A DNA stretch of 64,000 nucleotides from Eledone cirrhosa (lineage: Eukaryota), in NCBI GenBank assembly GCA_964016885.1, contig OZ024741.1, forward strand, positions 218,178,001 to 218,242,000, in the 5' to 3' direction. Shown here piece by piece: positions 3,001-41,705 of the stretch. Below the pieces are notes generated by a model, which was given only the letters and a program-made list of their open reading frames with translations, ran no database searches and was not told the origin of the DNA. The first letter of the stretch is position 1; every line of letters starts with the position of its first letter. The position numbers and the translations under genes are program-made.

Positions 3001-3056
3001 TTCCATGACGACCCCAAGCCACGCGCATTTATGCTGCCTATTCTGAGTGAGGTCAT
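1..3056 (-). pseudogene. ORF2 (APE endonuclease + reverse transcriptase) of copy A, with frameshifts and stops
   Basis: ORF-track pieces 2784-3056, 1601-2890, 257-1573 and 211-444 are colinear with ORF2 of copy D. Confidence 0.93.
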
Positions 3057-3090
3057 GTTGAAAACGAGTGGAAAAGATGGGAAAGACCAC

Positions 3091-14002: not shown

Positions 14003-14208
14003 GGTCTAAGCAGACGTATTTTGATCGCTCACAGTAAGTCGCTTTATTTGCCTGTTAAAATTATTTGTTGTTAAATATTTCTTGTTGTGTAAGGGATATA
14101 AGCCCTTAGACTTTTCCCCGTGAAGGGGAAAGTATAATATTTGGGCCTTTTGGCCCAAATATTTGAACTTTTTTTACATGTTAAAAAATTTACGAAGAAA
14201 AAAAAAAC

Positions 14209-16049
14209 ATGGCTGAGCCACGCCCGCCAGCGATATGTTTGCTGTCGTGCGACAACGACGTAGAAGTTGAGAGGAGCGCTACAGCGAAATTAACACACAT
14301 TGATAACACAAACACCACCACAAACAATGTAAACAAAGACACCAATGATACCAATGAGAACTCTAATTTTGAAAAAAATGACAGTAACAGCGACAACGAA
14401 AATACAGATAACAAAAAAAAAATAAATAACAAATACAACAACAATATCAACACCACTAATATGAAAACAAATAGCGACAACACCAACAGCAACAATACCA
14501 ACTGCACCGAGAACAACAGTGGCAACAAAGACAACAATGATAACAGCGACAGTGATAACAACAACACCAACAAGAACAACGACAACGACAACAACACCCC
14601 CAACGAAAACAAGAAGAACACTTTCGTTGCGGCAGCAGCAAAAAAGAGGCCATGCTTCAACATGGACCTCTCAAACAAAGATGAAAAGTTGGCCCAGGTA
14701 TGGAAGCTCATCAAGCAAGAGAAAACCTGGGCCAACTTAACTGTCCCGGTAGAAGCTATTGAGACAATGGAGCGCAGAACGGTGCATTACAGATGCATCT
14801 CAGCACAAACCAAAAGGGCAGTTTTAATCCCACAAGAAGATGTCGAAGTCGCCCTGAGATGCATCAGAGAAGACACCGAATACATAGAGAGGGGCAGACA
14901 GTACGGCACCATTTCGGTGTTGTTCAAGTCAGAAGCCCTCGCTATGAAACACGCTATGACTCCTTGCAAAACCAGCAAGGTCATAATGTACCCCTCCCAC
15001 ATGAGGACTGGTCCGGGGTTGACCTGGAGATCCTTCTCCAGATCAGACCCGAGAATGTGAAGACAATCCCGGACCACATCCGCCTTCAGAATGGGACGGT
15101 CATTCACATTATGACCGAAGGCAAAAGGCCGCAGTGTTTTGTTTGTGAGGAAAAAACCCATTTGCCAGCCTTCTGCCCTCAACTGCTGAAAGAGGCAAGG
15201 GGTCGAAAGGCTCCACTGCTGCCGACGCCGGGGCGAGGACCACAACCAACACCGGCACCGGCAAAACCACCAACAACAACACCAATAGAAAGACCACCAC
15301 CAACATTGACCACCAAAGGGGGAAACGAGGAAAACTATCAAATTCCTCCTCCCCCAAAAATCACACACCAATAAAACCATAAACTTACAGACACAGACCC
15401 CTCATCTACGAGTAGTGAAGATGAGGGAAAACCAAAATCCCCCAAAATACAAAAAGGAAACACAAAAAGAAAGAAAAAAACTCAACAAAGCACAAAATCA
15501 CCCACAATAAAAAACGCAGACACCACCCACGCAAACATCTCTCCAATAATACCAACATCAACACCACCATCACCATCACCATCACCATCACCAGAATCCC
15601 CCAAACGCAAACAACCTAAACAGACGCAAGAACAAATATACACACAAACATCTGAAACCACAGACACCGCACTCACAACAAACACAGATACAACCGAAAC
15701 AACACCACCACAGCCACGCAAACAAATAAAATCACACCAACAAAACATACAAAACTTCGTGCTCGTCAGGAGGGCCAACAAGAAACTGATGCCCCTCGTA
15801 GCACGAAGTGAAAATATACAAAAAGAGGAGGACATTTTTAAATCGAGCACATTTCGCGTGCTGGAAGATTTGATTCTGGTGCGAATGTCGCTCGATATAT
15901 TCAAAGAAATACGAGGCAGCTTTCCTCGGGACGTGGGAACCCCGAACGTAAAACCCACTTCAAGACTTTTAAAGGGGTTCCAAAAAGAAACCCCACCAAC
16001 TATGGAGGTCGAACAACCCGACCTTCACAAGAGCCCGGAAGGTAAGTAA
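14209..16049 (+). pseudogene. ORF1 of copy B (N-rich N-terminus, CCHC knuckle), frameshifted
   Basis: ORF-track pieces 14209-15060, 14793-15374 and 15759-16049. Confidence 0.85.
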
Positions 16050-16080
16050 ACCTTCCTCTCTCTTTTTTTAACCTGCCAAC

Positions 16081-19000
16081 ATGGCCGTATTAAGAGTAGG
16101 ATGTTTAAATGTTCGAGGCCTGGGATCGTCCTGGAAGCAGGGTCACCTGCTCAACGACCTCAGGTCTATAGAAATGGATGTAATTGCCGTCAGCGAGACC
16201 AGGATTTCCGACACGCGCGCACTAGCCCCCATTTTCGACGACTATCAGATCTTTGCATCTGTTAGCCGGCCGGGAATGGGAGGCGGGGTGGCAGTGCTGT
16301 TTAGGAAAGGCCTGGATCTCGAGGTAAGGTCGATCTTCCGGGACCCGGACGGGAAGTTGGTGGTCCTGGACGTGAACAATAACGAAGGTGGTGCCTTTAG
16401 ACTGGTGGCCGTCTATGCTCCTACTGGGGCAGGACGGCCGGACTTCTTTAGACGTCTGGAAGCCTTTCTGGGTACGTCTCGCCCTTTACTGTTAGCGGGG
16501 GACTGGAACGGCATCTTAGACGCACGCTGGGACTGTGTAGGAGTATCCGATAGGAGCGGGGGGTGCAAAAGCCTCAAGAACCTGATCAGCCAGTTCCAAC
16601 TGTCTGACAGGTACCGACTAGATTTCCCTAATGCGCCAGTGTGGACCTGGGCTAACCGCATAGGGTCATCTAGATCGTATATAGACAGGATATTCATTAG
16701 GAAAATAGACAGAAATAGTGTAAGCTGTCCACGTTTTGAAACGGTCGCCTATTCAGATCACAAGTTTGTGATCTGTATGGTCGACCTAGATAAAATGTGT
16801 AGGTTAGGACCTGGTTACTGGAAGCTAAACATGTCATTTCCGGCACGTAAGGCTTACAGGGACCAGGTCAACAATTTAGTTAAGAAAAAGTTGACAGGGG
16901 GAATCGTCAACAATAGATGGTGGGGGGGGCTCTCAAAAGAGAGATTAGAGTAATGTCGATAGAGTTTAGCAAAGAAGTAGCATTAGAGAAAAATAGAAAG
17001 GAGGGAGAGTTGGTAGATAAGTTAGACGAGGCTATTGGTAGTGGCATTGCAACTGATGTGCTAGCGGCGAGAATGGCATTAGACCATTTCTTCAATGCGA
17101 AACACGAAGGTTGCATTGTCAGAGCTAAGGCGCGTGCTCTGAGAAACGAGGGTACCAAAGCTGTTCGATGGGCCCGCGTGGCAGAGGCGCAGCGTGGTAA
17201 TAAAACCAAGATTCGGTCTTTGACGGACCGAGACGGTCTCGAGCTGAACGATTCCAAGAGGATGTGTGAGGCCTTTCGCCAACATTTTGCTCGGTTGTTC
17301 GGGGGAAGTGGCGGGTCAGAGATGGTGGCGGACTTCAGTCCCTACCTCGATGGCTTGCCGCAACTCTCGACGGCTGACGCTGGGCGCTGCGAAAGGCCAA
17401 TTACTTCAGCCGAGATTCAGGATGCCCTTGTAGGCTGCATGAGGCGCAAGTCACCCGGTTTGGATGGTCTGCCCTACGAGCTTTACGTAAATATGCCAGA
17501 CTTGTTCTCCAATCTCCTCGAAGCCCTCTACTGCAACTGGCAGCAAAACGGGAGTATTCCCAGTTCTGTGAGCCGGGGCGTAGTGACGCTGATAAGGAAA
17601 GACGAGAACAAGAGGGACGGACACATTAGACAATTTCAGGCCCATAACTCTGCTCAACACAGAGGTTAAGATTTTGGCCAGGATGTTAGCGAAGAGGTTG
17701 GCGCTTGTCGTCGGGGATTTGGTTGGGGAGGCGCAAACTTGCGCAATCCCAACCAGGTCCATACGCGACAACCTCCACCTAATGCGATACATCATAGAGA
17801 GGGTAGGGTGTAAACCTGGCTTCGGTGGGGCTCTGATCAATTTAGATCAATCGAAAGCATTCGATAGGGTCGACCATTGGTACCTGGAGGCTGTCCTCAA
17901 GGCGGCTGGCTTCGGCCCCATCTTCAGAAGCTGGATCGCTGCAATGCACAGCGGCACCTGCTCGATGGTCAAAATTAATGGCCACCTCTCGGAACCGTTT
18001 CAGGTCTCCCGATCGGTCCGTCAAGGGTGCCCTCTCTTCTCCCTTATGTACGTATTGACTCTCGAGCCTTTACTGCGGAAGCTGGAGCTGTTGCAGGGCA
18101 TCCCGCTCAAACCGGGACACGGAAAGGCTCTGTCGGCTTATGCGGACGACATCACCGTGATGGTGTCGGACACCTCAGAAATCGAGGTGGTCGGCAACTT
18201 ATTGGAGGAATATGAAAGGTTGACGGGAGCAAAACTTAACCCGGAAAAGTCAGTAGGCTTGCAACTCGGCACCTGGAGAGGCAAGTCCATGCCGTCCAAC
18301 AGCGTCGTTAGGCGCTGTACGGACGGACGGACCGGTAAAGTAGCTAGGAGTTTGGTTCGGGCCAGACTTCCAGGTGGATAGGAATTGGGACGAGGTGACG
18401 GGCAGGGTAGTCAGTCTCACCCAGAAATGGGCTGGGATAAAGCTATCACTGAAAGGTCGGGCGGAGGTGGCGAACGCGTACATCGCGTCCGTCATCTACT
18501 ACCGTCTGACTGTCGTCCCTTGCCCCCGTTCGCGCTTCGCCATCTTGGAGCGGCTCCTCTTCAAATTCTTGTGGAGGGGTCAGGTTCCGCTGGTGAGGCG
18601 GTCCATCTGCTGCCAGCACCCTCTACGTGGAGGGCTGGGCATGCCGTGGCTAATGATGCGCAGGCACGCGCTGAGGCTGCGGCATCTCCAGATATTCTGC
18701 CTAAACGGTGAACAGGTGTGGTCGCCGTTTGTCAGACGGGCCTTTCTGCAGCTCGTTTCTTTGACTGAGTTGCAGTCCTGGGTCAAGAAGAGACCGAGAC
18801 TGGGTGACTGGCATCTGGAATTTTGCCAGGCACTCACTGCCCTCTACCAGGCGGGCAATGCGGTCAGTAGAACTTCCACTCTCGAGTTCTATAGAGGATT
18901 AGTGGTGGGCAAGTGCGACGACGCACTCGGAGCGGCTCTGGGAGTCAACGAAGTCGAACTAACCAGTCTGTACCGGAGGACTTTCGAGCCAGGGACGATG

Positions 19001-19514
19001 GATAATTTCCAAAAATCCCTCGCTTGGCAGTGCTACCGGGGTGCACTACCGGTTCGAGATAAACTCTACAGGCACGGAAGTGCTATCAGACGGACCTGCC
19101 CGAGATGCGCGCAGAGCGACGAAACCGTTCTGCACGCACTCGTCCAGTGTCCGTGCATTACTGACTTGTGGAGTTATGTTGAACAGCTGTTGTTGCGTGT
19201 AGAACGGATCCGGCTATCGGCCGAGTCCATAGTGAAGATCGACCCGCCGCCTTCTTTTGGCCAGGAAGGGCAGGCAATTTTCCTCTGTCTGGTGGCAGTA
19301 GCGAAAGAGGTTGTATGGTGGATGAGGTTGAAAGGACTGAAGACAGACACTTTTCTCTTCGGCCAATCCCTCATCAACTTTTTCAAGTTTCACTTGGAAA
19401 GGAAGGTGAGGGTGGAGAGAGAAGTGCTCCCCCCCCAGTACATTTGCTGAAAGGTGGGTGAATGTGGCGAGAATGGCCCGTGTGAGTGGGCCTACTCTGG
19501 TCATGCGGCTGTAG
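16081..19514 (+). pseudogene. ORF2 of copy B (APE-RT-zf-RVT), frameshifted
   Basis: NVRGL, GDWN, YSDH, KSPGLDGLP, QGCPL, YADD, CPRCAQSDETVLHALVQC. Confidence 0.93.
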
Positions 19515-19803
19515 GTAGGTAAATTTGAAGAGGAGAGGGGTGCCCTTCCAAAGTTCTCTCGAAGCGTCGGGTCGTTCAGGACTGGTGGGGTACCTGAGCG
19601 AACCCTAGGTGGTCATCCCCCCTATTGGGAATGTTTTCTTGTTGTAATTTTCTTGTTACTTTATTGTTACTTTGTTATTGTTACTTTGTTTATTCATATT
19701 GTTTACTCGATTTTTCTGTAAAACCCCACTGTCCCAGTCTTTTGTATTGTCCCCTATATGTCGGCCCTTGTGGCCAATAAATGAAATCATTATTATTATT
19801 ATT

Positions 19804-22800
19804 GAATGCTATGGTTGACGGAGGCTCGGCTCTGTAAGGTATTGTAAATTTTGACCACTATAACAATTGTAAATTGTTTAAAACTGTAACCATATTGTAG
19901 ACAAAAACACCTTCCTCCTCGTGAGAGGGGTTTTTCTGCCCGTTATTTGGCCCTTCGGGGTTAAATAACCGCTTATTGGGGTTTTGTGCCCAATATTTAT
20001 TTTAAACAAAAAAACAACATGGCCACGAAAAAGAATTTTCATAGGTCACTCCCACTCATTCCGTCTTCTTCCTCAATCGTCACTACAGCAGAGAGAAGAT
20101 TGTCTCTCTCCCTCCTTTCTCTAAATGTGTCTCTCTCCCTCCCTCCCTTCTCTTTTGCAAGCGACGCCAGTAAAGAAAAATAGTTTACAAAATCACGTGA
20201 AAAACATGGAAGATTTCTCCACGACGACGACGACGAAAAAGGTGTGCGGGAAATACGAAAACCCATTTCATTCGTCTGACGTCATGAATAATAGCAGTAG
20301 CAGCCGTAATAACAGCAGCAGCAGCAATAGTGACGAGGAAAACAACGGTAGCAGCCGAAACAGCATCAGCGGCAGCATAAACAACAACAGCATTAGCAGC
20401 AACAGCAACAACAACAGCAGCAGCAGCAACAACAACAACAACCACAGCAACAGCGGCGGCGGCAGTCGTAGTACCTGCAGCAACAACAAAAGTAACAGCA
20501 GCTCTGACGACAACAACAACAACAGTAGCAAAGAAAAACCAATCTCGTTTGCAGGTATCGCAAAGAACCTGGAAACCATCCTCATAACAAATGAGGAATT
20601 AGAGGAAGCGAAGAAGATGGTGACGAAAACCGGACACCGAGCAATCTGCAAGGTAGCCGAAAATTTTTTCGAAACCCAACAGCACTGTACGGTCACGTAC
20701 CGTACAGTAAGAACAAAATCCCATAGAGTTGAAAGAGCCACAGAGGCTCAAATACAAAAAGCCTTAGGGTCTGTGTGGCAGCGTAAAACGCATATCACCC
20801 GAGGCAAGAAATATGCCACCGTAGACGTGCTTTTTGCCACACCCCAGGAGGCAAAGGCTCAATCCTTAGTGACCCTAAGAAGCGAGGAAATGGTGTTGGT
20901 GCCCTCCTACTGCGGGCAAAAAATTGTGAGGGTCAAACTGACCCCCCCCCCCCCCCGGGATGGCCTCTTCTTGGCTGGCCGCGTCTGTTCTCTTTGGAAT
21001 CGAGGACAAAACAACTGTACTGCAAGTACAGAAAGAGTAAGAGAAGATTGGATCGGCACCTCCATTGAGATGTTAATCCAAACCAACCAGGAGTGCATCG
21101 AAGCTATCCCGGATGTGATAGACTTCGATAACGGCACTCAACTGCCCATAAGTGTTGAGGGCAAACGCCCGAAATGCTTTCGCTGTGGATCGAAGACTCA
21201 CCTCAGGGCCTTCTGCAACGAGAAGACCCTGAGAAAGGAGAAAACCCCCTCCTTCCGAATCCGGCTCCACTGCTACCAGTAACAGGACAAGCGGCAACCA
21301 GGAACGATAGGTCCGTGGCACCCATACCCACGCCACGGAAATCAAGAACAGCAGCAGCAGTGGAAGTATTAACAACAACAACAGTAATACCAAATGCAGC
21401 TGCCACAGAGACTCCACTGCAAACATCACCAACAACAACAAGTGAAAGAGTGGAGCTGGTACCACTCCCCGACCTCACAGAATCAGACATGGAGTGTGAG
21501 GTGGGAGAGGGATGGCAAAAGGTCGTAAGAAGGCACAAACGCAGAAGCAGCGCATCGTCGCCTTCGAAAAGGGAGGAAAGAAATGAGAAAAGGGTAAAGG
21601 CTACTGCAAAGAGACTCACAGCAGCAACATCACTAACACCATCACCAGCCACACTAGCACCACCATCACCACCGGTGACAACCCCACCGCCAACAACAAC
21701 AACACCTTCAAAACCACCACCACAAGCAGCAACATCGCAAACACAACAACAAAACACACACACCCAGCAACAACGACAAGAAAATAGCAGAACCCCACCC
21801 CCAGAAAAACAAATGCACGGCAATAAATACACACAACAAGAAACTAATGACTTACATAATTGAACACACAGACATTTCACAGCACGACTACATAATACCA
21901 GCACCAATCAAAACGCCAACGAACATAGGACTGCTAAAAATAGCACAGAAACAATACACAAACATTAAAACGAAATTCCCCAACGCAGTTGGTGATTTCA
22001 GAGACCTAGGAGGGACTCTCAACCGGAGAGTATATTCGGACATACTCATAGAAGAGCCGACGACCAGCCGAAGGGACGATTCAACGGTCCCTTCACCAGA
22101 AATCAAGTGAAAAGGGATGGAGAAACCATCCTTCCTCTACGAAAAGTACGGTAAGTGGTCTTTCCCATCTTTTCCACTCTATTTTAAACATGACCTCACT
22201 CAGAATAGGCAGCATAAATGCGCGTGGCTTGGGGTCGTCATGGAAGCAGGGTCACCTGCTCAACGATCTCAGGTCACTAAACATAGATGTAGTGGCCTTC
22301 AGCGAGACCAGAATCTCCGAAGCACGGGCCTTAGCACCGATCTTCGGCGGCTACGATGTGTACGCATCTCCCAGCCGTCCTGGATCGGGGAAGGAGTTGC
22401 TGTGCTTTTTCGGAGAGGTTTGGATCTCGCCATACGGGCCATCTTCCTGGACCCAGAGGGTAAGTTGGTGGTGCTGGACGTGACCAGCGGAGACGAGCAA
22501 GCTTTCAGGCTAGTGGCCGTCTATGCGCTGACAGGAGCAGGGCGGCCTGATTTCTTCCGGCGTCTGGAGACCTTTCTTGGAACGTCCCGCTCTTTAGTGT
22601 TAGTGGGCGACTGGAACGGGATCTTAGATGCACGCTGGGACTGTGTGGGATTAGCGGATAGGGGAGTAGGGTGCAAGAGCCTCACCAACCTGCTCAGGCG
22701 TTTTGAACTGTCTGACAGGTACTGATTGGATTTCCCGAATGTGCCAATGTGGACTTGGACAAATCGCATATGGTCATCCAGATCATATCTAGATAGAGTA

Positions 22801-25800
22801 TTTTGTAGGGAAATAGATAGGTCTAGCATAGGCTGTCCACAATTCAAGATAGTCAGCTACACGGACCACAAATTCGTGATCTGTGTGCTTGACTTAGATA
22901 GGCTTCATAGACGAGGACCCGGCTACTGGAAGCTAAACGCGTCCTTACCAGCGCGCAAGGCCTACAGAGAGCGGATTAGCGAACTAGTTAAGCGGCCGTT
23001 GACGGGGGCCATCGTCAACAACAAGTGGTGGTTTGCTCTGAAAAGAGCGATTAGAATAAAATTCATTAGGTTTAGTAAGGCTTTAGCAATAAAGAAAAAT
23101 AGAGCAGAGGGAGAACTAGTTAGAAAATTAGACGAGGCGCTTAGCAAAGGCATCGCGACCGACGTGCTTACGGCGAAATTGGCCCTTGACCAATTCTTCA
23201 ATGCAAAGCACGAAGGCTGCGTTGTCAGAGCTAGGGTGCGTGCTCTCAGACACGAGGGGACGAAAGCCGTTCAATGGGCCCGAGTGGCGGAGGCGCGTCG
23301 TGGAAACAAAGCCACGATCCGGTCTTTGGAGGACCACGACAGGCGCATGCTACTCGATCCCGGGCAAATGTGTGAAGCTTTTCAGCGACACTTCGCTCAG
23401 CTGTTCGGGGGCAGCGGTGGGCCGGGTCGAGGGATGGACTTTAGTGTCTACCTCGACGGACTGCCGCGGCTCTCGGCCACTGAGGCGGAGTGTTGCGAAA
23501 AGCCGATAACAGGCGCTGAAGTACGGGAGGCTGCACAAGGGGTAAATCGCCTGGTTTGGATGGTCTGCCTTATGAACTTTACGTACAGATGCCAGACTTG
23601 TTCGGAGGCCTCTTGGCGGACGTCTACTGAAACTGGCAACAGAATGGGAGTATTCCCAGCTCTGTGAGCCGAGGTGCGGTGGCACTGCTGAGAAAGGATC
23701 CGAACAAGGGGGAAAACATAGATAATTTCAGGCTCATAACTCTGCTAAACACAGAGTTCAAGATTTTGGCCAAGGTGCAAGCAAAGAGGTTGGCGCTTGT
23801 CGTTGGTGTCTGCGCCATTCCCGACAGATCCATCCACGACAACCTCCACCTCATGCGATACATCGTAGAGAGGGTAGCTAGGGAACCTGGCACGGGTGGG
23901 TCCTTGATCAATTTAGATCAGTCGAAAGCTTTCGATAGGGTCGACCATCGTTACCTAGCGGCAGTCCTGAGGGCGGCTGGCTTTGGGCCCGTCTTCAGAG
24001 GCTGGATCGCTGCCATGCACAGCGACATCTGCTCTGTGGTGAGAGTGAACGGTCACCTTTCGGAACCGTTCAACATCATGCGCTCGGTCCGCCAAGGATG
24101 TCCCCTCTCGTTCATCTTGTACGTATTGACTCTCGAGCCATTACTGCACAAACTGGAGACGTTGAGGGGGGTCCCGCGCGAACTAGGATGCGGAAGTTCC
24201 GTGTCAGCATATTCGGACGATGTCACCGTAGTGGTGTCGAACGCCAAACACATCGAGGCGATCGGCACTACACTAAGAGAATACGAAGCGGTGACAGGAG
24301 CAATGATCAACCAGGAAAAGTCAGTGGGCCTGCAGCTCAGCACCTGGAGAGGCAGGTCCATGCCGTCCAACAGCGTCGTCGGGCGCTGGACGGACGGACC
24401 GGTTAAATTGCTTGGGGTCTGGTTCGGTCCGGAACTCCAGACGGACAAAAACTGGGACGAGGTGACGAGCAGAGTGGCTTCTCTCACCCAGAAATGGGCC
24501 GAGAGGAAGCTATCCCTGAAAGGTCGAGCGGAGGTGGCTAACGCGTACATCTCGTCCGTCATCTACTACCGCCTGACCGTCGTACCTTGTCCTAAGCCCC
24601 GCCTGACTGCGCTGGAGCGTTTGCTCTTTCGCTTCTTGTGGAAGGGACGCGCTCCGATGGTCAGGCGGTCCATCTGCTGTCAACACCCGCTACGTGGAGG
24701 ACTGGGCATGCCGTGGCTGATGATGCGCAGACACGCGCTCAGGCTACAACATCTCCACCTCTTCCTCGACGGTGATCAGGTGTGGTCGCCGTTTGCTAGA
24801 CACGTTTTTCCCCAGCTCGTCTCCTTGACGGAGCTGCAGTCCTGGGTCAAGCGAAGACCGAGAGGGAGCGCTTAGAGACTGGAATGTCTTCAGGCACTCA
24901 CAGCCCTCGACCAATCGGGCAATGTGATCGGTGGAAACTCCACCTTGGCGTTCTATAGGGGATTAGTGGAGGGTAAGAGCGACGACATACTTAGAGAAAC
25001 TCTAGGCGTCGACGAAAATCAACTAGCCAATCTCTTCGGAAGGACTTTCGGGCCGGGGCCTATGGACAACTTCCAGAAATCCCTGGCCTGGCAGTGCTAC
25101 CGGGGTGCTTTGCCAGTTCGGGATAAACTCTACAGGCATGGAGGTGCCGTCAGCTGGGCATGTCAGAGATGCGCACAGGGCGACGAAACCGTTCTGCACG
25201 CACTCGTCCAGTGTCCGAGCATTGCTGACTTGTGGGTTTATGTCGAACACCTGCTGTCACGTGTAGGACGGATTCAGCTATCAGCTGAGTCCATCGTGAG
25301 GATTACCCCGCCCTCTTCCTTTAGCCGGGAAGGGCAGGCAGTTTTTATCTGTCTGGTGGCCATGGCGAAAGAGATAGTATGGTGGACACGTTTGAAAGGG
25401 CTGAAGACGAGCACTTACCTCTTCGGTGATGCCCTGATTAACTTTTTCAAATTTCATTTGAAAAGGAAAATCAGGGTAGAGAGGGAAGTGCTCTCTTCCC
25501 AGCATTTTGTTGAAAGATGGGTGAGAGAAGCAAGTATGGCCCGAATGAATGGGCCTTCTCTGAGTATGTGTCTGTAAATTAAAGGTGGAAAACTGGGAGA
25601 GGGCACTTGACCTGGTGGTCAGGGTCACTGTGGTCTTTTAATGGGCTTTCTCCACAAATGTCCCTCGGAAGTCTCCCCCCTATTGGGGAATTTTTCTTTG
25701 TTATTTTATTACATCCTCTGTTTTTTACACGCAGAAATGCCCATTTGTACCGTCCTGTATTGTCCTGTACTGTCCTTAATGTCTACTTTATGTAAACCCT

Positions 25801-25818
25801 TGTGGTCAATAAAGAAAA

Positions 25819-25855
<37 letters not shown>
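19804..25855 (+). mobile_element. Tx1/L1-clade element, copy C (full length, disabled)
   Basis: Begins immediately after the (ATT)n tail of B; ORF1 about 20019-22154, ORF2 22190-25577 fragmented; ends AATAAA..(ATT)n. Confidence 0.95.
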
Positions 25856-26070
25856 GAATGCCATGGTTGACGGAGGCTCGGCTCTGTAAGGTATAGTAAT
25901 TTTTAACCGTTAAAACAATTGTAAATTGTTTAAAACTTGAACCAAATTGTTGATAAAGACACCCTCCTCCTCGTGAGAGGGGTCTTTCTGTCCGTTATTT
26001 GGCCCTTCGGGGTTAAATAATCAGTTATTGGGGTTTTGTACCCAAAATTTCATTTTAAACAAAAAACAAC

Positions 26071-28167
26071 ATGGCTACGAAAAAGAAATTTCATACGTCA
26101 CTCCCACTCATTCCGTCTTCTTCTTCCTCAATCATCACTACAGCAGAGAGAAGATTGTCTCTCTCCCTCCCTTCTTTAAATGTATCTCTCTCCCTCCCTT
26201 CTCTTTCGCAAGTGACGAAAGAAAAGAAAAGTCTCGTGCAAAGCGTGCAAGGTTTCTCCACGACGACGACGACAGCGACGAAACAGGTGTGCGGGAAATA
26301 CGAAAACCCAGTTCATTCGTCTGACGTCAGGAATAATAGCAGTAGCAGCCGTAATAACAACAGCAACAGTGACAATGAAAACAACAGTAGCAGCCGCAAC
26401 AGCATCACCAGCAGCATAAACAACAACAGCATTAGCAGCAGCAACACCAACAACAACCACAGCAACAGCGGCGGAGGCAGTAGTCGTAGTACCTGCAGCA
26501 ACAACAAAAGTACCAGCAGCTCTGACGACAACAACAACAGCAGAGAAAAACCAATCTCATTTGCAGGTATTGCGAAAAACTTGGAAACAATCCTCATAAC
26601 AAATGAGGAATTAGAGGAAGCGAAGAAGATGGTGACAAAGAACGGACACCGAGCAATCTGCAAGGCAGCGAAAAATTTTTTCGAAACCCAAGAGCACTGT
26701 ACGGTCACGTACCGTACAGTAAGTACAAAATCCCGTAGGGTGGAAAGAGCCACAGAGGCCCAAATACAAAAAGCCTTGGGGTCTGTGTGGCAGAGGAAAA
26801 CGCACATCACCCGAGGCAAAAAATACGCCACCGTAGACGTACTTTTTGCCACACCCCAGGAGGCAAAGGCCCAATCAGTAGTGACCCTAAGGAGCGAGGA
26901 AATGGTGTTGGTGCCCTCCTACTGCGGGCAAAAAATTGTGAGGGTCAAACTGACCCACGTCCCCCCCGGAATGACCCCTTCTTGGCTGGCCGCGTCTGTC
27001 CTCGTCGGAATCGAGGACAAAACAACTGTACTGCAAGTACAGAAAAAAGTAAGAGAAGATTGGGTCGGCTCCTCCATTGAGATGCTAATCCAAACCAACC
27101 AGGAGTGCATCGAAGCTATCCCGGATGTGATAGACTTCGATAACGGCACTCAACTGCCCATAAGTGTTGAGGGCAAACGCCCGAAATGCTTTCGCTGTGG
27201 ATCGAAGACTCACCTCAGGGCCTTCTGCAACGAGAAGACCCTGAGAAAGGAGAAAACCCCCCTCCTTCCGAATCCGGCTCCACGGCTACCAGCAACAGGA
27301 CAAGCGGCAACCAGGAACGATAGGTCCGTGGCACCCATACCCACTCCACGGAAATCAAAGACAGCAGCAGCAGTGGAAATATTAACAACAACAACAGCAA
27401 TACCAAATGCAGCTGCAACAGAGACTCCAGTGCAAACATCACCAACAACAACAAGTGAAAGAGTGGAGCTGGTACCCCTCCCCGACCTTACAGAATCAGA
27501 CATGGAGTGTGAGGTGGGAGAGGGATGGCAAAAGGTCGCAAGAAGGCACAAACGCAGAAGCAGCGCATCGTCGCCTTTGAAAAGGGAGGAAAGAAATGAG
27601 AAAAGGGTAAAGTCTACTGCAAAGAGACCCACAGCAGCAACACCACCAACACCATCACCACCCACACCAGCACCACCATCACCACCGGCGACAACCCCAC
27701 CGCCAACAACACCTTCAACACCACCACCACAAGCACCAACATCGCAAACACAACAACAAAACACACACACCCAGCAACAACGACAAGAAAATAGCAGAAC
27801 CACACCCCACCCCCAGAAAAACAAATGCACGGCAATAAACACACACAACAAGAAACGAATGACTTACATAATTGAACACACAGACATTTCACAACAGGAC
27901 TACATAATACCAGCACCAATCAAAACGCCAACTAACATAAGACTGCTAAAAATAGCACAGAAACAATACACAAACATTAAAACGAAATTCCCCAACGCAG
28001 TTGGTGATTTCAGGGACCTAGGAGGAACCATCAATCGAAGAGTATATTCAGACATTCTCTTAGAAGACCCGACGACCAGCCGAAGGGACGATTCAACGGT
28101 CCCTTCACCAGACGATCAAGTGAAAAGGGATGTAAAAACCATCCCTCCTCTACCAAAAGTACGGTAA
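26071..28167 (+). CDS. ORF1p, gag-like nucleic-acid-binding protein (698 aa)
   Basis: Open frame; N/S-rich N-terminus, central folded domain, CFRCGSKTHLRAFC (Cx2Cx4Hx4C), P/T-rich linker, basic RRHKRR. Confidence 0.9.
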   Translation: MATKKKFHTSLPLIPSSSSSIITTAERRLSLSLPSLNVSLSLPSLSQVTKEKKSLVQSVQGFSTTTTTATKQVCGKYENPVHSSDVRNNSSSSRNNNSNSDNENNSSSRNSITSSINNNSISSSNTNNNHSNSGGGSSRSTCSNNKSTSSSDDNNNSREKPISFAGIAKNLETILITNEELEEAKKMVTKNGHRAICKAAKNFFETQEHCTVTYRTVSTKSRRVERATEAQIQKALGSVWQRKTHITRGKKYATVDVLFATPQEAKAQSVVTLRSEEMVLVPSYCGQKIVRVKLTHVPPGMTPSWLAASVLVGIEDKTTVLQVQKKVREDWVGSSIEMLIQTNQECIEAIPDVIDFDNGTQLPISVEGKRPKCFRCGSKTHLRAFCNEKTLRKEKTPLLPNPAPRLPATGQAATRNDRSVAPIPTPRKSKTAAAVEILTTTTAIPNAAATETPVQTSPTTTSERVELVPLPDLTESDMECEVGEGWQKVARRHKRRSSASSPLKREERNEKRVKSTAKRPTAATPPTPSPPTPAPPSPPATTPPPTTPSTPPPQAPTSQTQQQNTHTQQQRQENSRTTPHPQKNKCTAINTHNKKRMTYIIEHTDISQQDYIIPAPIKTPTNIRLLKIAQKQYTNIKTKFPNAVGDFRDLGGTINRRVYSDILLEDPTTSRRDDSTVPSPDDQVKRDVKTIPPLPKVR

Positions 28168-28202
28168 GTGGTCTTTCCCATCTTTTCCACTCTATTTTAA
28201 AC

Positions 28203-31200
28203 ATGACCTCACTCAGAATAGGCAGCATAAATGCGCGTGGCTTGGGGTCGTCATGGAAGCAGGGTCACCTGCTCAACGACCTCAGGACACTAAACATAGA
28301 TGTAGTGGCCATCAGCGAGACCAGAATCTCCGAGGCACGGGCCTTCGCACCGATCTTCGGCGGCTACGATGTGTACGCATCTCCCAGCCGTCCTGGATCG
28401 GGTGGAGGAGTTGCTGTGCTTTTTCGGAGAGGTTTGGATCTCGCCATACGGGCCATCTTTCTGGACCCAGAGGGAAAGCTGGTGGTGCTGGACGTGACCA
28501 GCGGAGACGGGCAAGCTTTCAGGCTAGTGGCCGTCTATGCCCCGACAGGAGCAGGGCGGCCTGATTTCTTCCGGCGTCTGGAGACGTCCCGCTCTTTAGT
28601 GTTAGTGGGCGACTGGAACGGGATCTTAGATGCACGCTGGGACTGTGTGGGATTAGCGGATAGGGGTGGAGGGTGCAAGAGCCTCACCAACCTGCTCAGG
28701 CGTTTTGAACTGTCTGACAGGTACCGATTGGATTTCCCGAATGTGCCAATGTGGACTTGGACAAACCGCATAGGGTCATCCAGATCATATCTAGATAGAG
28801 TATTTTGTAGGGAAATAGATAGGTCTAGCATAGGCTGTCCACAATTCAAGATAGTCAGCTACACGGACCACAAATTCGTGACCTGTGTGCTTGACTTAGA
28901 TAGGCTTCATAGACGAGGACCCGGCTACTGGAAGCTAAACGCGTCCTTACCAGCGCGCAAGGCCTACAGAGACCGGATTAGCGAACTAGTTAAGCGGGCG
29001 TTGACGGGGGCCATCGTCAACAACAAGTGGTGGTTTGCTCTGAAAAGAGCGATTAGAATAGAATCGATTAGGTTTAGTAAGGCTTTAGCAATAGAGAAAA
29101 ATAGAGCAGAGGGAGAACTAGTTAAAAAATTAGACGAGGCGCTTAGCAAAGGCATTGCGACCGACGTGCTTGCGGCGAAATTGGCCCTTGACCAATTCTT
29201 CAATGCAAAGCACGAAGGCTGCGTTGTCAGAGCTAGGGTGCGTGCTCTCAGACACGAGGGGACGAAAGCCGTTCAATGGGCCCGAGTGGCGGAGGCGCGT
29301 CGTGGCAACAAAGCCACGATCCGGTCTTTGGTGGACCACGACGGGCGCATGCTACTCGATCCCGGGCAAATGTGTGAAGCTTTTCAGCGACACTTCGCTC
29401 AGCTGTTCGGGGGAAGCGGGGGGCCGGGTAGAGGGATGGACTTTAGTGTCTACCTCGACGGACTGCCGCGGCTCTCGGCCACTGAGGCGAAGTGTTGCGA
29501 AAAGCCGATAACAGCCGCTGAAGTAAGGGAGGCAATGACTGGCTGCACAAGGGGTAAATCGCCTGGTTTGGATGGTCTGCCCTATGAACTTTACGTACAG
29601 ATGCCAGACTTGTTCGGAGGCCTCTTGGCGGACGTCTACTGCAACTGGCAACAGAACGGGAGAATTCCCAGTTCTGTGAGCCGAGGAGCGGTGGCACTGC
29701 TGAGAAAGGATCCGAACAAGGGGGATAACATAGACAATTTCCGGCCCATAACTCTGCTAAACACAGAGTTTAAGATTTTGGCCAAGGTGCTAGCAAAGAG
29801 GTTGGCGCTTGTCGTTGGTGGTCTGGTGGGAGAGGCGCAGACATGCGCCATTCCCGACAGATCCATCCACGACAACCTCCACCTCATGCGATACATCGTA
29901 GAGAGGGTAGCTAGGGAACCTGGCACGGGTGGGTCCTTGATCAGTTTAGATCAGTCGAAAGCTTTCGATAGGGTCGACCATCGTTACCTAGCGGCAGTCC
30001 TGAGGGCGGCTGGCTTTGGGCCCGTCTTCAGAGGCTGGATCGCTGCCATGCACAGCGACATCTGCTCTGTGGTGAGAGTGAACGGTCACCTGTCGGAACC
30101 GTTCAACATCATGCGCTCGGTCCGCCAAGGATGTCCCCTCTCGTCCCTCTTGTACGTATTGACTCTCGAGCCATTACTGCACAAACTGGAGACGTTGAGG
30201 GGAGTCCCGCGCGAACTAGGATGCGGAAGATCCGTGTCAGCATATGCGGACGATGTCACCGTAGTGGTGTCGAACGCCAAACACATCGAGGCGATCGGCA
30301 CTACACTAAGAGAATACGAAGCGGTGACAGGAGCAATGATCAACCAGGAAAAGTCAGTGGGCCTGCAGCTCGGCACCTGGAGAGGCAGGTCCATGCCGTC
30401 CAACAGCGTCGTCGGGCGCTGGACGGATGGACCGGTTAAATTGCTAGGGGTCTGGTTCGGTCCGGACCTGCAGACGGACAAAAACTGGGACGAGGTGACG
30501 AGCAGGGTGGCTTCTCTCACCCAGAAATGGGCGGAGAGGAAGCTATCCCTGAAAGGTCGAGCGGAGGTGGCTAACGCGTACATCGCGTCTGTCATCTGCT
30601 ACCGCCTAACCGTCGTACCTTGTCCTAAGCCTCGCCTGACTGCGCTGGAGCGTTTGCTCTTTCGCTTTTTGTGGAAGGGACGTGCTCCGATGGTCAGGCG
30701 GTCCATCTGTTGTCAACACCCGCTACGTGGAGGGCTGGGCATGCCGTGGCTGATGATGCGCAGGCACGCGCTCAGGCTACGACATCTCCACCTCTTCCTC
30801 GACGGTGATCAGGTGTGGTCGCCGTTTGCTAGACGCGTTTTTCCCCAGCTCGTTTCCTTGACGGAGCTGCAGTCCTGGGTCAAGCGAAGACCGAGAGGGA
30901 GCGCTTAGAGACTGGAATGTCTTCAGGCGCTCACAGCCCTCGACCAATCGGGCAATGTGATCGGTGGAAACTCCACCTCGGCGTTCTATAGAGGATTAGT
31001 GGAGGGGAAGAGCGACGACGTACTTGGGGAAACTCTAGGCGTCGACGAAAATCAACTAGCCAATCTCTTCGGAAGAACTTTCGGGCCAGGGCCTATGGAC
31101 AACTTCCAGAAATCTCTGGCCTGGCAGTGCTACCGAGGAGCCTTGCCAGTTCGGGATAAACTCTACAGGCATGGAGGTGCCGTCAGCCGGGCATGTCCGA

Positions 31201-31610
31201 GATGCGCGCAGGGCGACGAAACCGTCCTGCACGCACTCGTCCAGTGTCCGAAAATTGCTGACTTGTGGGTTTATGTCGAACACCTGCTGTCGCGTTTAGG
31301 ACGGATCCAGCTATCATCTGAGTCTATCGTGAGGATTGCCCCGCCCTCCTCCTTTAGCCGGGAAGGGCAGGCAGTTTTTATCTGTCTGGTGGCCATGGCG
31401 AAAGAGATAGTATGGTGGACACGTTTGAAAGGGCTGAAGACGAGCACTTACCTCTTCGGTGATGCTCTGATTGACTTTTTCAAATTTCATTTGAAAAGGA
31501 AAATCAGAGTAGAGAAGGAAGTGCTCTCTTCCCAGCATTTTGTTGAAAGATGGGTGAGAGAAGCAAGAATGGCCCGAGTGAATGGGCCGACTCTGAGTAT
31601 ATATCTGTAA
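28203..31610 (+). CDS. ORF2p APE endonuclease/reverse transcriptase/zf-RVT (1135 codons) with one in-frame TAG at 30906-30908
   Basis: ORFs 28203-30908 and 30957-31610 are in the same frame; a 12-nt in-frame deletion (FLGT) is present in the endonuclease relative to other copies. Confidence 0.9.
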
Positions 31611-31870
31611 ACTAAAGGTGGAAAACTGGGAGAGGGCACTTGCCTTGGTGGTCAGGGTCATTGTGGCTTTTTACTGGGCTTTCTCCACAAATGTCCCTCG
31701 GAAGTCTCCCCCCTATTGGGGAATTTTTCATTGTTATTTTCATTGTTATTTTTGTTACATCCTCTGTTTTTGTTTTTTTACACGCAGAAATGCCCATTTG
31801 TACCGTCCTGCATTGTCCTGCACTGTCCTTAATGTCTACTTTATGTAAACCCTTGTGGTTAATAAAGAAA

Positions 31871-31910
<40 letters not shown>

Positions 31911-32164: not shown

Positions 32165-35100
32165 CGGTCTGTTCGGACGCTTTTTGCTCGCTCCCAGTAA
32201 GTCGCTTTATTTGCCTGTTAAAATTTTTTTGTTGTTAAATATTTCTTGTTGTGTAAGGGATATAAGCCCTTAGACATTGCCCTGTGAAGGGGAAAGTATA
32301 ATATTTGTGCCAAAAGGCCCAAATATTTGAACATTTTACTTTAAAAAAAAAAAGTTTAAAAAGACAAAACATGGCTGAGCAACGCCCCCCACCCCACCCC
32401 AGCAATATGTTTGCTGTCGTCTGACAACGGCGTAAAAGTTGAGAGGAGGGTTAGTGAAATTCATACAGCAAACACCACCACAAACAACGTGAACAAAGAC
32501 AACAACACATTTTGAAAAAATTACCACACCAACTACAACAATAACAGCGTCAACCAAAATACAGACAACAGAAAAAAATGACAACAAATGCAACAACGAT
32601 ATTAAACACCACTAACAAGAAAATAAACAACGACAACACCAACAGCAACAATACAAATTGCACCGAAAACAACAACAACGGTGGCACCAAAAACACAACC
32701 AACTACAACAGTGATAACAGCAACAACACCAACAACACCATTTGTAGCAGTAGCAACCGCAACAACACCAACAACAAGACCAGTAGCGGCAGTAATAATG
32801 GTGTGGCCCGAAATATAGAAACAGTGCTAGTCGCAGAGGAGGAGATGGCAGTCGCAAGAGCCATGGCATCGAGAAACGACAACAGAGTTTCCTTGAAACC
32901 TCCACCCGATTTCTTCAAAGACCAGCAACTGTGCACGGGACCAGCAACTGTGCACGGGATCCGACATGGAGTGTGAGGCGGGAGGGAAGTGGCAAACGGT
33001 CTGCCTCAAAAAAGAAAAAAAAAAGAAAAAAAACCCTAGCTTCACCCTTCAAAAGCTAAGGCAGACAAATAGGGGTAAAGACTGCAAGGAGACTTGCAGC
33101 AACACCACCACCATCACCACCAACAACCACCACACCGCCACCAGCATCGCCAAAAACACCAACATCGCAAACACAACAAAACACACACACCCAACAGCAA
33201 CAACAAGAAAACAGCAAGAAAATTGCCCCTCCCCCCAAAAAGTACACAGCCATAAACATGGCAAATAAAGAACTCCTACAACATATAAACAGCACACAGA
33301 CATCACAGAAAAAAAACTACTACACCCCACCAACACCAAGAACTCTACCGACAAACATAAGCATCATTGAAATCTCAATAGAACATTACACATTTTTAAA
33401 GCAAAAATTCCCCAACGCAGTTGGGGACTTCAGAGGGTCGGTTACCAAGAGGATATACACCAATATCTTCTTGGAAACACCCATGACCAGCTAAAGGGAC
33501 GGTTCTACGGTCCCTTCACCACACGATCAAGGTAAGTAATCCTTTCTCACTTACCCCGTTTCTCATCCAATATGGCAATACTTAGAAATGGAGTCATCTC
33601 GGAAGCAGGGTCACCTGCTCAACGACCTCAGGTCACTAAACATAGATGTGGTGGCCATCAGCGAGACCAGAATCTCCGAAGCACGAGCCTTCGCACCGAT
33701 CTTCGGCGGCTACGATGTATACGCATCTCCCAGCCGTCCAGGATCGGGGGGAGGGGTTGCCGTGCTTTTTCGGAGAGGCTTGGACCCAGAAGATAAGTCG
33801 GTAGTGCTGGACGTGACCGGCAGCGAAGGCAATGCTTTCAGGCTAGTAGCCGTCTACACCCCAACAGGGGAAGGACTCTCAGATTTCTTCAGGGGTCTAG
33901 AGACCTTTCTTGGAACGTCCCGCTCTTTAGTGTTAATCGGCAACTGGAACGGTATCTTAGATGCACACTGGGATTATGTGGGGCTAGTAGACGGGGCAGG
34001 AGGGTGTAAAAGCCTCAGCAACCTGCTCGGACGTTTTGAACTGTCTGACAGGTATATACTGGATTATCAGAATGTGCCAATGTGGACATGGGCAAACCGC
34101 ATCGGGTCATCCAGATCGTATTTGGATAGGGTATTCTGTAGGGAAACAGATAAGGCTAGTGTAGGTTGTCCACAATTTAAAGTAGTGGACTACACGCACC
34201 ATAAATTTGTGATCTGTGAAGTTGACTTAGATAGACTCCATAGGAAAGGGCCCGGCTACTGGAAGCTGAACGCGTCGTTCCCGGCGCACAAAGCTTACAG
34301 AGACCGGATTAGCGAATTAGTTAAGCCTGCGTTGACGGGTGCAATCGTTAACAAAGGTGGTGGTTTACCCTGAAAAGGGCTATTAGAGTAGAATCGATAA
34401 GGTTTAACAAAGGAGTAGTGATAGAGGAAAATAGAGTAGAGGGAGAGTTAGTTAGAAAGCTAGAAGAGGCGTTTAGGACAGGAAACGCAACCGACGTGCT
34501 TGCGGCGAGATTGGCACTCGACCAATTCTTCAACGCAAAGCATGAAGGCTGCGTTGTCAGAGATAGAGCGCGTGCTCTAAGACACGAGGGGACGAAAGCC
34601 GTTCAATGGGCCCGGGTGGTGGAGGCGCGACGTGGCAACACGTCCACAATTCGGTCTTTGCCTGATAAAAACGGGCGCATGTTGCTCGAACCGGAGCAGA
34701 TGTGTGCGGCTTTTCAACAGCACTTTGCTCAATTGTTCGGGAGCGGCGGCGGGCCGGATGGGAGTATGGACTTCGGTGCATACCTCGACGGACTGCGAAA
34801 AGCCGATAACAGCAGGTGAAATGCAGGGCGCGATGTCTGACTGCATGAGGGGTAAATCGCCAGGTTTGGATGGTCTGCCCTACGGGCTTTATGCGTATAT
34901 GCCAGACTTGTTCGGCGACCTCTTGGCAGATGTCTACTGCAAGTGGCAGCAGAACGGGAGCACTCCCAGTTTTGTGAGCCGGGGAGCGGTGGCGCTGCTG
35001 AGAAAAGACCGGATCAAGGGGGACGTTAAAGACAACTTCAGGCCCATAACTCTGCTAAACGCAGAGTTTAAGATTTTGGCCAAGGTGTTAGCAAAGAGAT

Positions 35101-37127
35101 TGGCGCTTGTCGTCGGTGATCTGAGGTGAGAGGCGCATATATGCGCCATTCCGGACAGATCCATCCACGACAACCTCCATCTCATGCGATACATCATAGA
35201 GAGGGTGGTTAAGGAACCTGGCACGGGTGGGGCCCTGATCAACTTGGATCAATCTAAATCATTTGATAGGGTCGACCATCGGTACCTGGCGTTTTTAGGG
35301 GCTGGATCGCTGCGATGCACAGCGCCATCCGCTCGATTGTGAGGGTGAATGGTCACTTGTCGCAGCCTTTCAGCATCATGAGCTCGGTCCGACAGGGTTG
35401 CTCACTCTCGTCCCTCTTGTACGTACTGTACTGGCCCTCGAGCCGTTGTTGCACAAATTGGAGACGATGAGGGGGGGGGGGGGGTCCCACGCGAACTGGG
35501 ATGCGAGAGATCCGTGTCAGCTTACGCCGACGACGTCACCGTAGTGGTGTCGAGCACCAAACACGTCCAGATGCTCGGCATCGCTCTCAAGGAATACGAA
35601 ACGGTGACAGATGCAAATATAAACCAGGAAAAGTCGGTCGGCTTGCAGCTCGGCACCTGGAGAGGTAAGTCCATGTCGTCCGACAGCGTCGTGGGGCGCT
35701 GGACGGAAGGACCGGTTAAATTGCTCGGGGTCTGCTTCGGTCCGGACCTCCAGATGGAGAAAAACTGGAGCGAAGTGACGAGCAGGGTGGCCTCTCTCAC
35801 CCAGAAATGGACCGAGAGAAGGCTGTCTCTGAAAGGTCGGGCGGAGGTGGCGAATGCGTACATAGCGTCCGTCATCTGCTACCGCCTAACTCTGATCAAA
35901 ATAGAGCGCCTTCTCTTCCGCTTTTTGTGGAAGGAAAGTGCTCCCATGGTCAGACGATCCATTTGCTGTCAACACCCGTTGCGTGGAGGACTAGGCATGC
36001 CGTGGCTGATGATGCGCAAACATGCGCTGAGGCTGCGACATCTCTGGTGCTTCCTTGACGGTGAACAGTTGTGGTTGCCGTTTGCCAGACGCGCTTTTCC
36101 CAGCTCATCTCCTTGACGGAGCTGCAGTCCTGGATCAGGAAAAGACCGAGGGATAGCGCTTGGAAGCAGGAATGTTTCCAAGCGCTCATCGCCCTCTACC
36201 AGCTGGGTACTAGTATCGGTGGATCATCCACCTCGGCGTTCTATAGAGGGCTAGTGGCGGGTAAGAGCGACGACATTCTCGGGGAGACCCAGGGCGTCGA
36301 AGACGATTAGCTGTTCGCTCTCTTCAAGAGAACTTTCAGACCGGGGCCTATGGACAACTTCCAGAAATCCCTGGCCTGGTAGTGCCACCGGGTAGCGTTG
36401 CCGGTTCGGGATACGCTCTACAGGCACGGAGGTGCTGTCAGCCGAGACTGTCCGAGATGCGCGCAGGGCGACGAAACCGTCCTGCACGCACTCGTTCAGT
36501 GTCAGAGAATTGCTGACTGGTGGAGCTATGTCGAACAGCTCCTGTCGCGTGTAGGACGGATCCAGCTATCGACTGAGTCCATTGAGCAGATAGCCCCGCC
36601 ATCCTCCTTTAAAGAGGAGGAAGGGCAGGCAGTTTTCATCTGCCTGGTGGCCATGGCGAAAGGGATTGTGTGGTGGACAAGGTTGAAAGAGTTGAAGACG
36701 AACACTTTCCTCTCCGGCCAATCCCTGATTAACTTTTTCAAGTTTCACTTGAAGAGGAAAATCAGGGTGGAGAGGCAAGTGCTGTCTTCTAGTAAGTTTG
36801 TTGAAAGGTGGGTGAAAGTGGCGAGTCTGGTTCGAGTGAACGGGCCCGCTCTGAGTATACACCTGTAGACTGAGTAATGGGAAAAGTGAGAGAGGGTGCT
36901 TGCCCTGGTGGTCAGGGTGGCCGTGGTCTTTTGTGTGGTTTTCACCACGAGTGACACTGGGAGGTTTCCCCCTTCTTGGGGAATTTTTGTTTGAATTTTT
37001 TGGATTTCTAGTCCAATTTTGTTATAACCTATTTAATCGACCAAAACCCACTTTGTATCGCCCTGTACTGTTCTGTGCCGTCTCTAATGTTTTTCTTCGT
37101 GTCAGCCCTTGTGGCCAATAAAGAAAC

Positions 37128-37180
<53 letters not shown>
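32165..37180 (+). mobile_element. Tx1/L1-clade element, copy E (chimeric, internally deleted, disabled)
   Basis: 5'UTR homologous to B; ORF1 about 32371-33540 shortened; ORF2 33572-36868 fragmented; AATAAA..(ATT)n tail. Confidence 0.93.
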
Positions 37181-38245: not shown

Positions 38246-38256
38246 ATATATATATA

Positions 38257-38776: not shown

Positions 38777-38828
<52 letters not shown>

Positions 38829-41496: not shown

Positions 41497-41571
<75 letters not shown>

Positions 41572-41673
41572 TGTATATGTGTGTGTGTGTGTGTGTGTGT
41601 AGTAGTAGTAGTAAGGTGTTCGATGCTGCGACAATGGCCAGCAGCGATGTGTGTCAAATGGCTATTAAGATAA

Positions 41674-41700: not shown

Positions 41701-41705
<5 letters not shown>

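Follow-up and report, generated by a model that had tools for sequence, protein, structure and literature searches.

Background

Long interspersed elements (LINEs) are treated as intronless, since a spliced RNA, once copied, loses its intron, and the ratio between the products of the pair of open reading frames that they carry (ORF1, ORF2) is explained by inefficient reinitiation. A 64,000-nt stretch of Eledone cirrhosa DNA (assembly GCA_964016885.1, contig OZ024741.1, positions 218,178,001 to 218,242,000 of the forward strand), hereafter called the window, raises the question of why such elements should carry a splice signal at all. It is microsatellite-rich animal DNA holding five elements without long terminal repeats (non-LTR elements), named here A to E, and in each of them ORF1 ends on a consensus 5' splice site, or donor. 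An unspliced RNA that contains a 5' splice site is retained in the nucleus of human cells, and intronless mRNAs are depleted of such sites (PMC4380460); given this cost, a perfect donor at the ORF1 stop is unexpected across families whose reverse transcriptases (RTs) diverge by about 45%. The donor is a real, selected feature of these elements, the selection itself being highly probable from the sequence comparisons given below.

A consensus 5' splice site at the ORF1 stop

The string G/GTAAGT (the slash marks the splice point) was found at the ORF1 stop of all five elements, with its GT at 3094 (minus strand), 16042, 22151, 28164 and 33532, at every coordinate given in the original prediction. 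The full consensus AAG/GTAAGT is present in A, B and E and ACG/GTAAGT in C and D, and no element shows more than one mismatch to MAG/GTRAGT, the consensus 5' splice site (0 or 1 in 5/5). The donors, and the spacer that follows the one of D, are located as follows:

3089..3097, minus strand: donor of A, AAG/GTAAGT, phase 2, 38 nt ahead of the ORF2 ATG
16039..16047, plus strand: donor of B, AAG/GTAAGT, phase 1, ORF1 terminating in Gly-Lys-stop
22148..22156, plus strand: donor of C, ACG/GTAAGT
28161..28169, plus strand: donor of D, ACG/GTAAGT, phase 2, its internal TAA being the ORF1 stop
28170..28202, plus strand: spacer of D, 33 nt, free of AG, 76% pyrimidine, with the ORF2 ATG at 28203
33529..33537, plus strand: donor of E, AAG/GTAAGT, phase 1, with a complementary 7-nt string in its own spacer to which it can base-pair

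The reading frame over the motif had been said to differ between elements, and it does: the donor is in phase 2 in A, C and D, where the ORF1 stop is a TAA within the motif, and in phase 1 in B and E, where the ORF1 C-terminus is Gly-Lys-stop. Conservation of the donor despite this change of frame points to a constraint on the nucleotides and not on Gly-Lys. When the elements are anchored on the donor, the A-B, A-E and B-E pairs match at 10, 6 and 6 of the 27 upstream positions and at 9/9 positions of the motif; the chance of the 7-mer is 6e-5 per position, and both GGT (7/64 Gly codons) and AAG (54/177 Lys codons) are minority codons in these ORF1s. The motif thus holds in each of the five elements first described, but they amount to three lineages, A, C and D being near-identical (93-95% over ORF2). 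Summed over three of the models weighed below, a U1-type site under nucleotide-level selection is very probable on these comparisons.

Behind the hexamer, the window spacers run for 32-34 nt with no AG and a pyrimidine content of 76-78%, placing the ORF2 ATG 38-40 nt from the GT. The AG-free pyrimidine spacer of about 30 nt described at the outset therefore exists in the window, but it does not belong to the conserved unit, as the distant family presented below has no pyrimidine spacer. Taken by themselves, local hairpins that would mask the donor in B (z -0.9) or in E (z -1.3) fall short of significance.

Similar sites occur elsewhere in the elements. Additional G/GTAAGT strings lie within ORF2 of A (2787, minus strand), C (22460) and E (35665), D being without the A/C site. 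A donor-like site is found at the ORF2 stop of B and at none of those of C, D and E, and a 5' untranslated region (5'UTR) donor is common to B and E:

14031..14039, plus strand: donor-like CA/GTAAGT in the 5'UTR of B, about 30 nt from the 5' end and followed by a U-rich stretch
32194..32202, plus strand: donor-like CA/GTAAGT in the 5'UTR of E

The motif in distant families

A scan of genome contigs based on the RT yielded 41 loci (L001-L041), and one based on the endonuclease gave no match. Thirty-nine of the 41 loci lie in a single assembly labelled bacterial, where tandem arrays of intact two-ORF LINEs, full-length, head to tail and without (ATT)n spacer, are found; the loci span 317,797 of the 586,450 nt of the array contigs. 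L040 and L041 are likewise eukaryote-type LINEs in assemblies labelled bacterial, and these assemblies probably contain animal DNA binned by mistake. In a tree built from the window and the fetched loci only, the main distant family (37 loci) forms its own clade; its RT shares 54-56% identity with those window RTs that are intact, and identity within the family is 91-100% where sampled (8 rows).

The donor is present in this family at all 43 distinct ORF1 ends, which read TAA G/GTAAGT with a variable base following the motif; the 43 copies are counted as one lineage. The original prediction had named lack of conservation across the wider family as a refuting outcome, and this outcome did not occur. 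The stop lies 5' of the donor and the ORF2 ATG 13 nt downstream, the pyrimidine spacer being absent, and because the stop precedes the donor, splicing would leave the ORF1 protein unchanged. L040, more distant still (RT about 41%), has a weak TAA A/GTAAAT at the ORF1 end, and L041 presents no ORF1/ORF2 junction; a further family (L027, L032), with a TAATG stop-start overlap between ORF1 and ORF2, is taken up with the arguments against splicing. For G/GTRAGT to fall no more than 10 nt from the stop in one or more of the three new lineages, the probability by chance is about 0.008.

Further donor-like sites recur in these families. In the main family GTRAGT stands 15 nt after the ORF2 stop in 45/45 ends (28 GTAAGT and 17 GTGAGT), with variation at +3 only (A/G), and the L027 family has CAG/GTAAGT at +41 after its ORF2 stop. 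GTAAG is found within 200 nt of the 5' end in 37 of the 41 distinct 5' ends, in three unrelated-looking contexts, and some distant subfamilies have a U-rich, acceptor-like TTTCAG 176-193 nt behind this 5'UTR donor. In L015 (1991-2053) a stem of 17 bp encloses the 5'UTR donor (segment -21.1 kcal/mol), and a U-rich, acceptor-like TTTCAG stands behind it. The 3'UTR of the main family contains an acceptor-like TAG about 250-277 nt in and, in 5/5 of the units listed, an internal AATAAA at +435 to +468, ahead of the terminal hairpin and its AATAAA. L002 illustrates the set, with a 5'UTR donor at 2313, a post-ORF2 donor at 8019, an acceptor-like TAG at about 8268 and an internal AATAAA at 8447; its donor, TAG and internal AATAAA in the 3'UTR could, as a possible reading of their order, form a second intron plus an alternative poly(A) switch. 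At 4520-4539 of the same locus, behind the first ORF1 stop, the start of ORF2 is overlapped by another in-frame stop (TGATG), as in 13/13 of the junction variants listed.

Would the donor be spliced?

The reading that we favour, at a little short of an even chance, is regulated splicing from this donor to an acceptor in the 3'UTR, yielding an ORF1-only mRNA. U1 binding, splicing, acceptor choice and benefit are here inferred from sequence. In this Tx1-type LINE lineage the U1 small nuclear ribonucleoprotein would read the 5' splice site at the ORF1/ORF2 boundary, and in a fraction of the transcripts the donor would be joined to a U-rich 3'UTR acceptor, removing ORF2 (about 3.6 kb). The product would be a monocistronic ORF1 mRNA with its exon junction at the stop codon, supplying the excess of ORF1 protein that LINE particles need, while the unspliced RNA would give ORF2 protein by reinitiation at its own ATG and serve as the template for new copies, which would explain why genomic copies keep the donor.

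Several observations favour this splicing model. A junction near the stop spares an RNA from nonsense-mediated decay (the 50-nt rule), and all donors lie within about 40 nt of the stop, where the junction would not trigger it. In addition, the 3'UTR is where the best acceptor usually falls, and intron-like pairs are complete in the distant family. Acceptors were ranked by a hand-made pyrimidine-tract score and compared with 500 dinucleotide shuffles per 3'UTR. The top-scoring acceptor after the ORF1 donor lies in the 3'UTR in C, D, E, 6/6 main-family units and L027, and acceptor-like strings had been correctly reported to end at 31787, 25734 and 37011, with none in B. The sites concerned, with the 3' structures of D, are:

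25715..25734, plus strand: acceptor-like site of C, 19/500 shuffles scoring as high
31708..31721, plus strand: C-run/G-run hairpin in the 3'UTR of D, upstream of the acceptor, conserved in B, C and E
31768..31787, plus strand: acceptor-like site of D, a U-rich tract with CAG, ranked top of the 266 AGs after the donor, 14/500 shuffles scoring as high
31849..31866, plus strand: terminal 3-bp hairpin and AATAAA of D, followed by (ATT)n
36992..37011, plus strand: acceptor-like site of E, ranked second within that element and out of alignment with the site of C/D

The 3'UTRs are U-rich, and of ten of them only those of C, D and L020 (8/500) beat their shuffles. The acceptor of the distant family is aligned (45 matches against 45 ORF2 ends), a count to be read with the fact that the search pattern itself required TAG. 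ORF2 donors are weakly short (1 against 3.8 expected, 22/200 synonymous-codon shuffles), and in the same kind of shuffles poly(A) hexamers are not depleted. The spliced RNA had been expected to keep the 3' stem-loop, which is half true of the long splice in D: the terminal hairpin would stay, but the C-run/G-run hairpin would go.

Several observations weigh against splicing of this kind. The best acceptor of B is not in the 3'UTR, and the 3'UTR scores are unremarkable against 500 shuffles in L015 (44 as high), L002 (47), L035 (73), L024 (82), E (154), L027 (277) and B (493). The acceptor-like sites of the window occupy different columns of the 3'UTR alignment, splicing would append unrelated tails, 20 residues long in C/D, 36 in E and 15 in B, and competing acceptors are not depleted in ORF2 relative to synonymous-codon shuffles. 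The second distant family (L027, L032) has the donor at 0/3 ORF1 ends and is intact nevertheless, so the donor is not essential; a G/GTAAGT 222 nt into ORF2 of L027 might substitute for the absent junction donor.

Nor were spliced copies found. Nine junction patterns gave no match in the window and the 41 loci, where unspliced control patterns matched 33, 20 and 4 times, so that the retrocopies joining ORF1 to the 3'UTR that the original prediction called for did not appear among loci whose selection by RT is biased against ORF1-only copies. With spliced copies amounting to some 2% of the full-length insertions of human L1 (PMC5860796), to see none in about 48 copies is weak evidence.

A profile of four ORF1 C-termini, run against 1.84 billion representative proteins, gave 23 proteins, from which P0013, an unrelated repeat protein, was rejected as a homologue; one addition from a C-terminal profile brought the set back to 23 ORF1-like proteins. 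In word-index protein searches the C-terminal profile had 5 matches (one new), an RRM profile over longer proteins had 1, and the ORF1 C-terminus alone had none. The C-termini in the set are GK (4), SK (1), G (2) and R (3); two proteins show a GE read-through into a pyrimidine-coded stretch with an off-frame ORF2 start, and the remaining 11 are frameshifted, uninformative or negative. The two GE read-throughs suggest, at the protein level, a GTGAG variant. GK ends, 4 among the first 22 proteins, are far above composition (p 8e-7), an excess that protein-level conservation alone could explain. None of 22 ORF1-like proteins has a tail matching the 3'UTR or ORF2 in the spliced frame, which also counts against splicing. 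Three candidates were discarded: the tails of P0002 and P0016 that match at the junction are unspliced read-throughs, and that of P0005, which resembles an ORF1-ORF2 fusion, was rejected as one, as it scores 34 against a shuffle maximum of 39 and also aligns with the normal ORF1 end of A.

The predicted ORF1-only mRNA thus retains the conserved donor in its favour, but has against it the missing spliced copies, the unaligned window acceptors and the lack of an acceptor in B. A broader version, possible though rather unlikely, is that the Tx1 lineage runs a retrovirus-like RNA programme through which real introns persist inside a LINE. The U1 sites of the 5'UTR, of the ORF1 stop and of the stretch directly behind the ORF2 stop, a part of them masked by hairpins, would then sort the transcripts: spliced or early-polyadenylated mRNAs (ORF1-only and bicistronic) would be translated, and the unspliced full-length RNA alone would be reverse-transcribed. 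No description of such a programme for any LINE was found in the open-licence literature searched.

Alternative explanations

The main rival, itself unlikely, holds that U1 binds with little or no splicing and governs which poly(A) site the LINE RNA uses, its elongation or its retention in the nucleus. It accounts for the recurrence of donors in the 5'UTR and at the ends of ORF1 and ORF2, often with a U- or pyrimidine-rich tract behind, for B, a perfect donor without acceptor, and for the lack of spliced copies in the window and the 41 loci; moreover, full-length RNA of the distant family must bypass an internal AATAAA, and in the Arabidopsis element EVD premature termination is suppressed by U1 (PMC5580714). 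Against it, ORF2 of D and of the distant family offers no A(A/T)TAAA that a site at the ORF1 end could protect, and the window hexamer 268-330 nt upstream is at the level expected for an A-rich ORF1. The nuclear retention and decay associated with unspliced 5' splice sites in human cells (PMC4380460) would also be a cost for a retroelement. Escape from HUSH was set aside, the protection there being independent of the 5' splice site (PMC8770142).

A quite improbable alternative is that the motif is kept for a reason other than splicing, as a termination-reinitiation signal or as a DNA- or RNA-binding site for a protein. It sits where ORF2 reinitiation occurs, the donor-less family has in its place a TAATG overlap, a known coupling device (PMC5972666), and in human L1 retention of the 5'UTR donor is believed to result from its lying in a RUNX3 site (PMC5860796). 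The ATG, however, is 38-40 nt away in the window and 13 nt away in the distant family, the motif is also present after ORF2 and in the 5'UTR, where reinitiation is unneeded, and its variation (A/G at +3) obeys the splice consensus.

That shared ancestry and chance suffice, the motif being unselected, is very improbable. Independent positive lineages number only four, with one family lacking the motif and one having it weakly, and part of it is a stop codon or Gly-Lys codons; yet these codons are the minority ones in these ORF1s, the identity of the motif contrasts with near-random flanks, and the test on new lineages described above had a low chance of success.

Least probable of all is a micro-intron of 52-58 nt that starts at the donor, ends at the earliest YAG of ORF2 (codons 5-7) and fuses ORF1 and ORF2 in frame. 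The frame is kept by the CAG of A, C and D (52-53 nt) and by the TAG of B (58 nt) despite differing donor phases, and small invertebrate introns have a similar pyrimidine tract behind the donor. As a conserved function it is nevertheless largely refuted: at 43/43 ends of the distant family the stop lies ahead of the donor and the first YAG 107 nt on, making fusion impossible; the site of E is out of frame with its own ATG and in frame only through a 23-nt decay deletion; no intronless copy was found among the 5 window copies or the 41 loci, and no fused protein was seen (0/22 tested). Moreover, copying of a fused RNA should eliminate the intron.

Anatomy and surroundings of the elements

The elements of the window and the ORFs of D are:

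1..4485, minus strand: element A, its 3' end beyond the window
14003..19789, plus strand: element B
19805..25819, plus strand: element C
25856..31872, plus strand: element D
26071..28167, plus strand: ORF1 of D, 698 aa, intact, with an RRM-like and a CCHC region, resembling ZCCHC3/zf-CCHC clusters
28203..31610, plus strand: ORF2 of D, with APE endonuclease, RT and zf-RVT, in two frames with a break near 30908-31095
32166..37128, plus strand: element E

An (ATT)n run directly precedes 5/5 elements, tail and target being not fully distinguishable; B, C, D and E end in AATAAA followed by (ATT)n, and LTRs are absent. ORF2 has Pfam domains for an N-terminal APE endonuclease (Exo_endo_phos), the RT (RVT_1) and a C-terminal zinc finger (zf-RVT), and its best PDB match is human L1 ORF2p (E 4e-52). 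ORF1 combines RRM-like and CCHC regions, with zf-CCHC and ZCCHC3 RNA-binding clusters as Atlas neighbours (0.91-0.93); zf-CCHC was detected in related loci, whereas the whole window ORF1 had no Pfam match at E 0.01. By domain content the elements are of the L1/Tx1 layout (APE-RT-zf-RVT ORF2, CCHC ORF1 and simple tail), and microsatellite targeting is a Tx1 trait (PMC4494074).

Some copies are decayed: C has a 1-nt deletion, A an internal ORF1 deletion, and E an in-frame stop at 33494 and a 23-nt deletion after the ATG. Modules appear to have been swapped, the match of A to C/D beginning only 36 nt upstream of the donor (3130, minus strand) and E being chimaeric, with a B-like 5' end and a D-like ORF1 C-terminus (32170-32737). 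The ORF1 end of C/D contains a 42-nt tandem duplication (28075-28160). B, C and D form a head-to-tail chain with (ATT)n at the joints (13955-37180), and the 5' ends of B and E lie at the (ATT)n tails of repeats resembling short interspersed elements (13776-13967 and 31971-32160), further copies of which occur near 55418-56143 and 61366. This arrangement suggests an (ATT)n-specific Tx1 family.

The window also contains a Penelope-like element (39396-41246, minus strand) with a 616-aa ORF encoding RT and GIY-YIG, surrounded by inverted and direct partial repeats (38250-43243), a 2.6-kb satellite on a 5-nt basis (10825-13434), a 1.7-kb CAC/TAC array (46721-48402) and a 310-nt tandem duplication (59455-60134). 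An Rfam scan of the window gave no match. Among the distant loci, L040 is an intact Tx1-like element between two copies of the U1 small nuclear RNA gene (2607-2770 and 9532-9708), and its family possibly targets U1 arrays.

Comparison with known systems

In the open-licence literature searched, which did not extend to Repbase curator notes, no LINE was found to be reported as conserving a donor where its ORF1 stops, nor were splice signals described for Tx1 elements. Tx1-clade LINEs such as Kibi, Koshi, Keno and crocodilian Tx1 insert into microsatellites and share with the window elements an ORF2 with APE, RT and zinc finger and a CCHC ORF1, but (ATT)n, in which the window elements lie, is not among the targets named in the part of PMC4494074 available. 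Recently active L1-Tx1 families are listed for Octopus vulgaris, splicing being unmentioned in the available part of that account (PMC13282606). Functional donors do occur in LINE RNA, those of human L1 giving rise to spliced copies called SpIREs; there, however, it is the 5'UTR that holds the donor, believed to be a side effect of the RUNX3 site, and the sections available of PMC5860796 describe no conserved donor at the ORF1 stop. Another non-LTR precedent is given by the introns of antisense TART RNA (PMC1636488).

Among LTR retrotransposons, the inter-ORF splicing of Ogre (via PMC3735527 and PMC12786077) matches only the rejected micro-intron model, and an ORF-fusing intron of that type is contradicted by the position of the stop, 5' of the donor at 43/43 distant-family ends. 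Gag-only spliced RNAs are known from copia and BARE (PMC3735527) and from EVD (PMC5580714). In EVD, whose Ty1/copia-type short RNA is termed shGAG, and in barley BARE1, a conserved U1-type donor ends the structural gene, as it does here, and the translated and replicated RNA pools are separate (PMC5580714, PMC3735527). Their introns differ in being short and tied to a nearby poly(A) site, the splice creating the stop; that of EVD is protease-centred and coupled to premature termination (PMC5580714). No A(A/T)TAAA lies between the donor and the element end in D or E that would allow such coupling, and the most EVD-like part of the present system is the 3'UTR donor of the distant family with its internal AATAAA. 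EVD, the analogy first proposed, is a precedent for a Gag-only spliced RNA, but the analogy is loose, and the 3-kb, pol-deleting intron of copia is closer (PMC5580714, PMC3735527).

In Drosophila copia a single splice of 2950 nt removes nearly all of the enzyme gene and produces an RNA dedicated to gag (PMC3735527); likewise, the long splice considered here would delete the enzyme gene and leave an RNA for the structural protein. Copia, however, has LTRs and a single ORF, depends on the splice for terminating gag, and has proven splicing, whereas the window elements are non-LTR, have two ORFs and a stop already at the donor, and their splicing is inferred. Being non-LTR, the feature belongs to neither the copia nor the EVD system. 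Should the donor fail to splice, it would represent a retroelement recruiting U1 for the processing of its own RNA, and either answer bears on the design of site-specific LINE vectors; should it splice, LINEs would have arrived by convergence at copia's way of setting protein stoichiometry.

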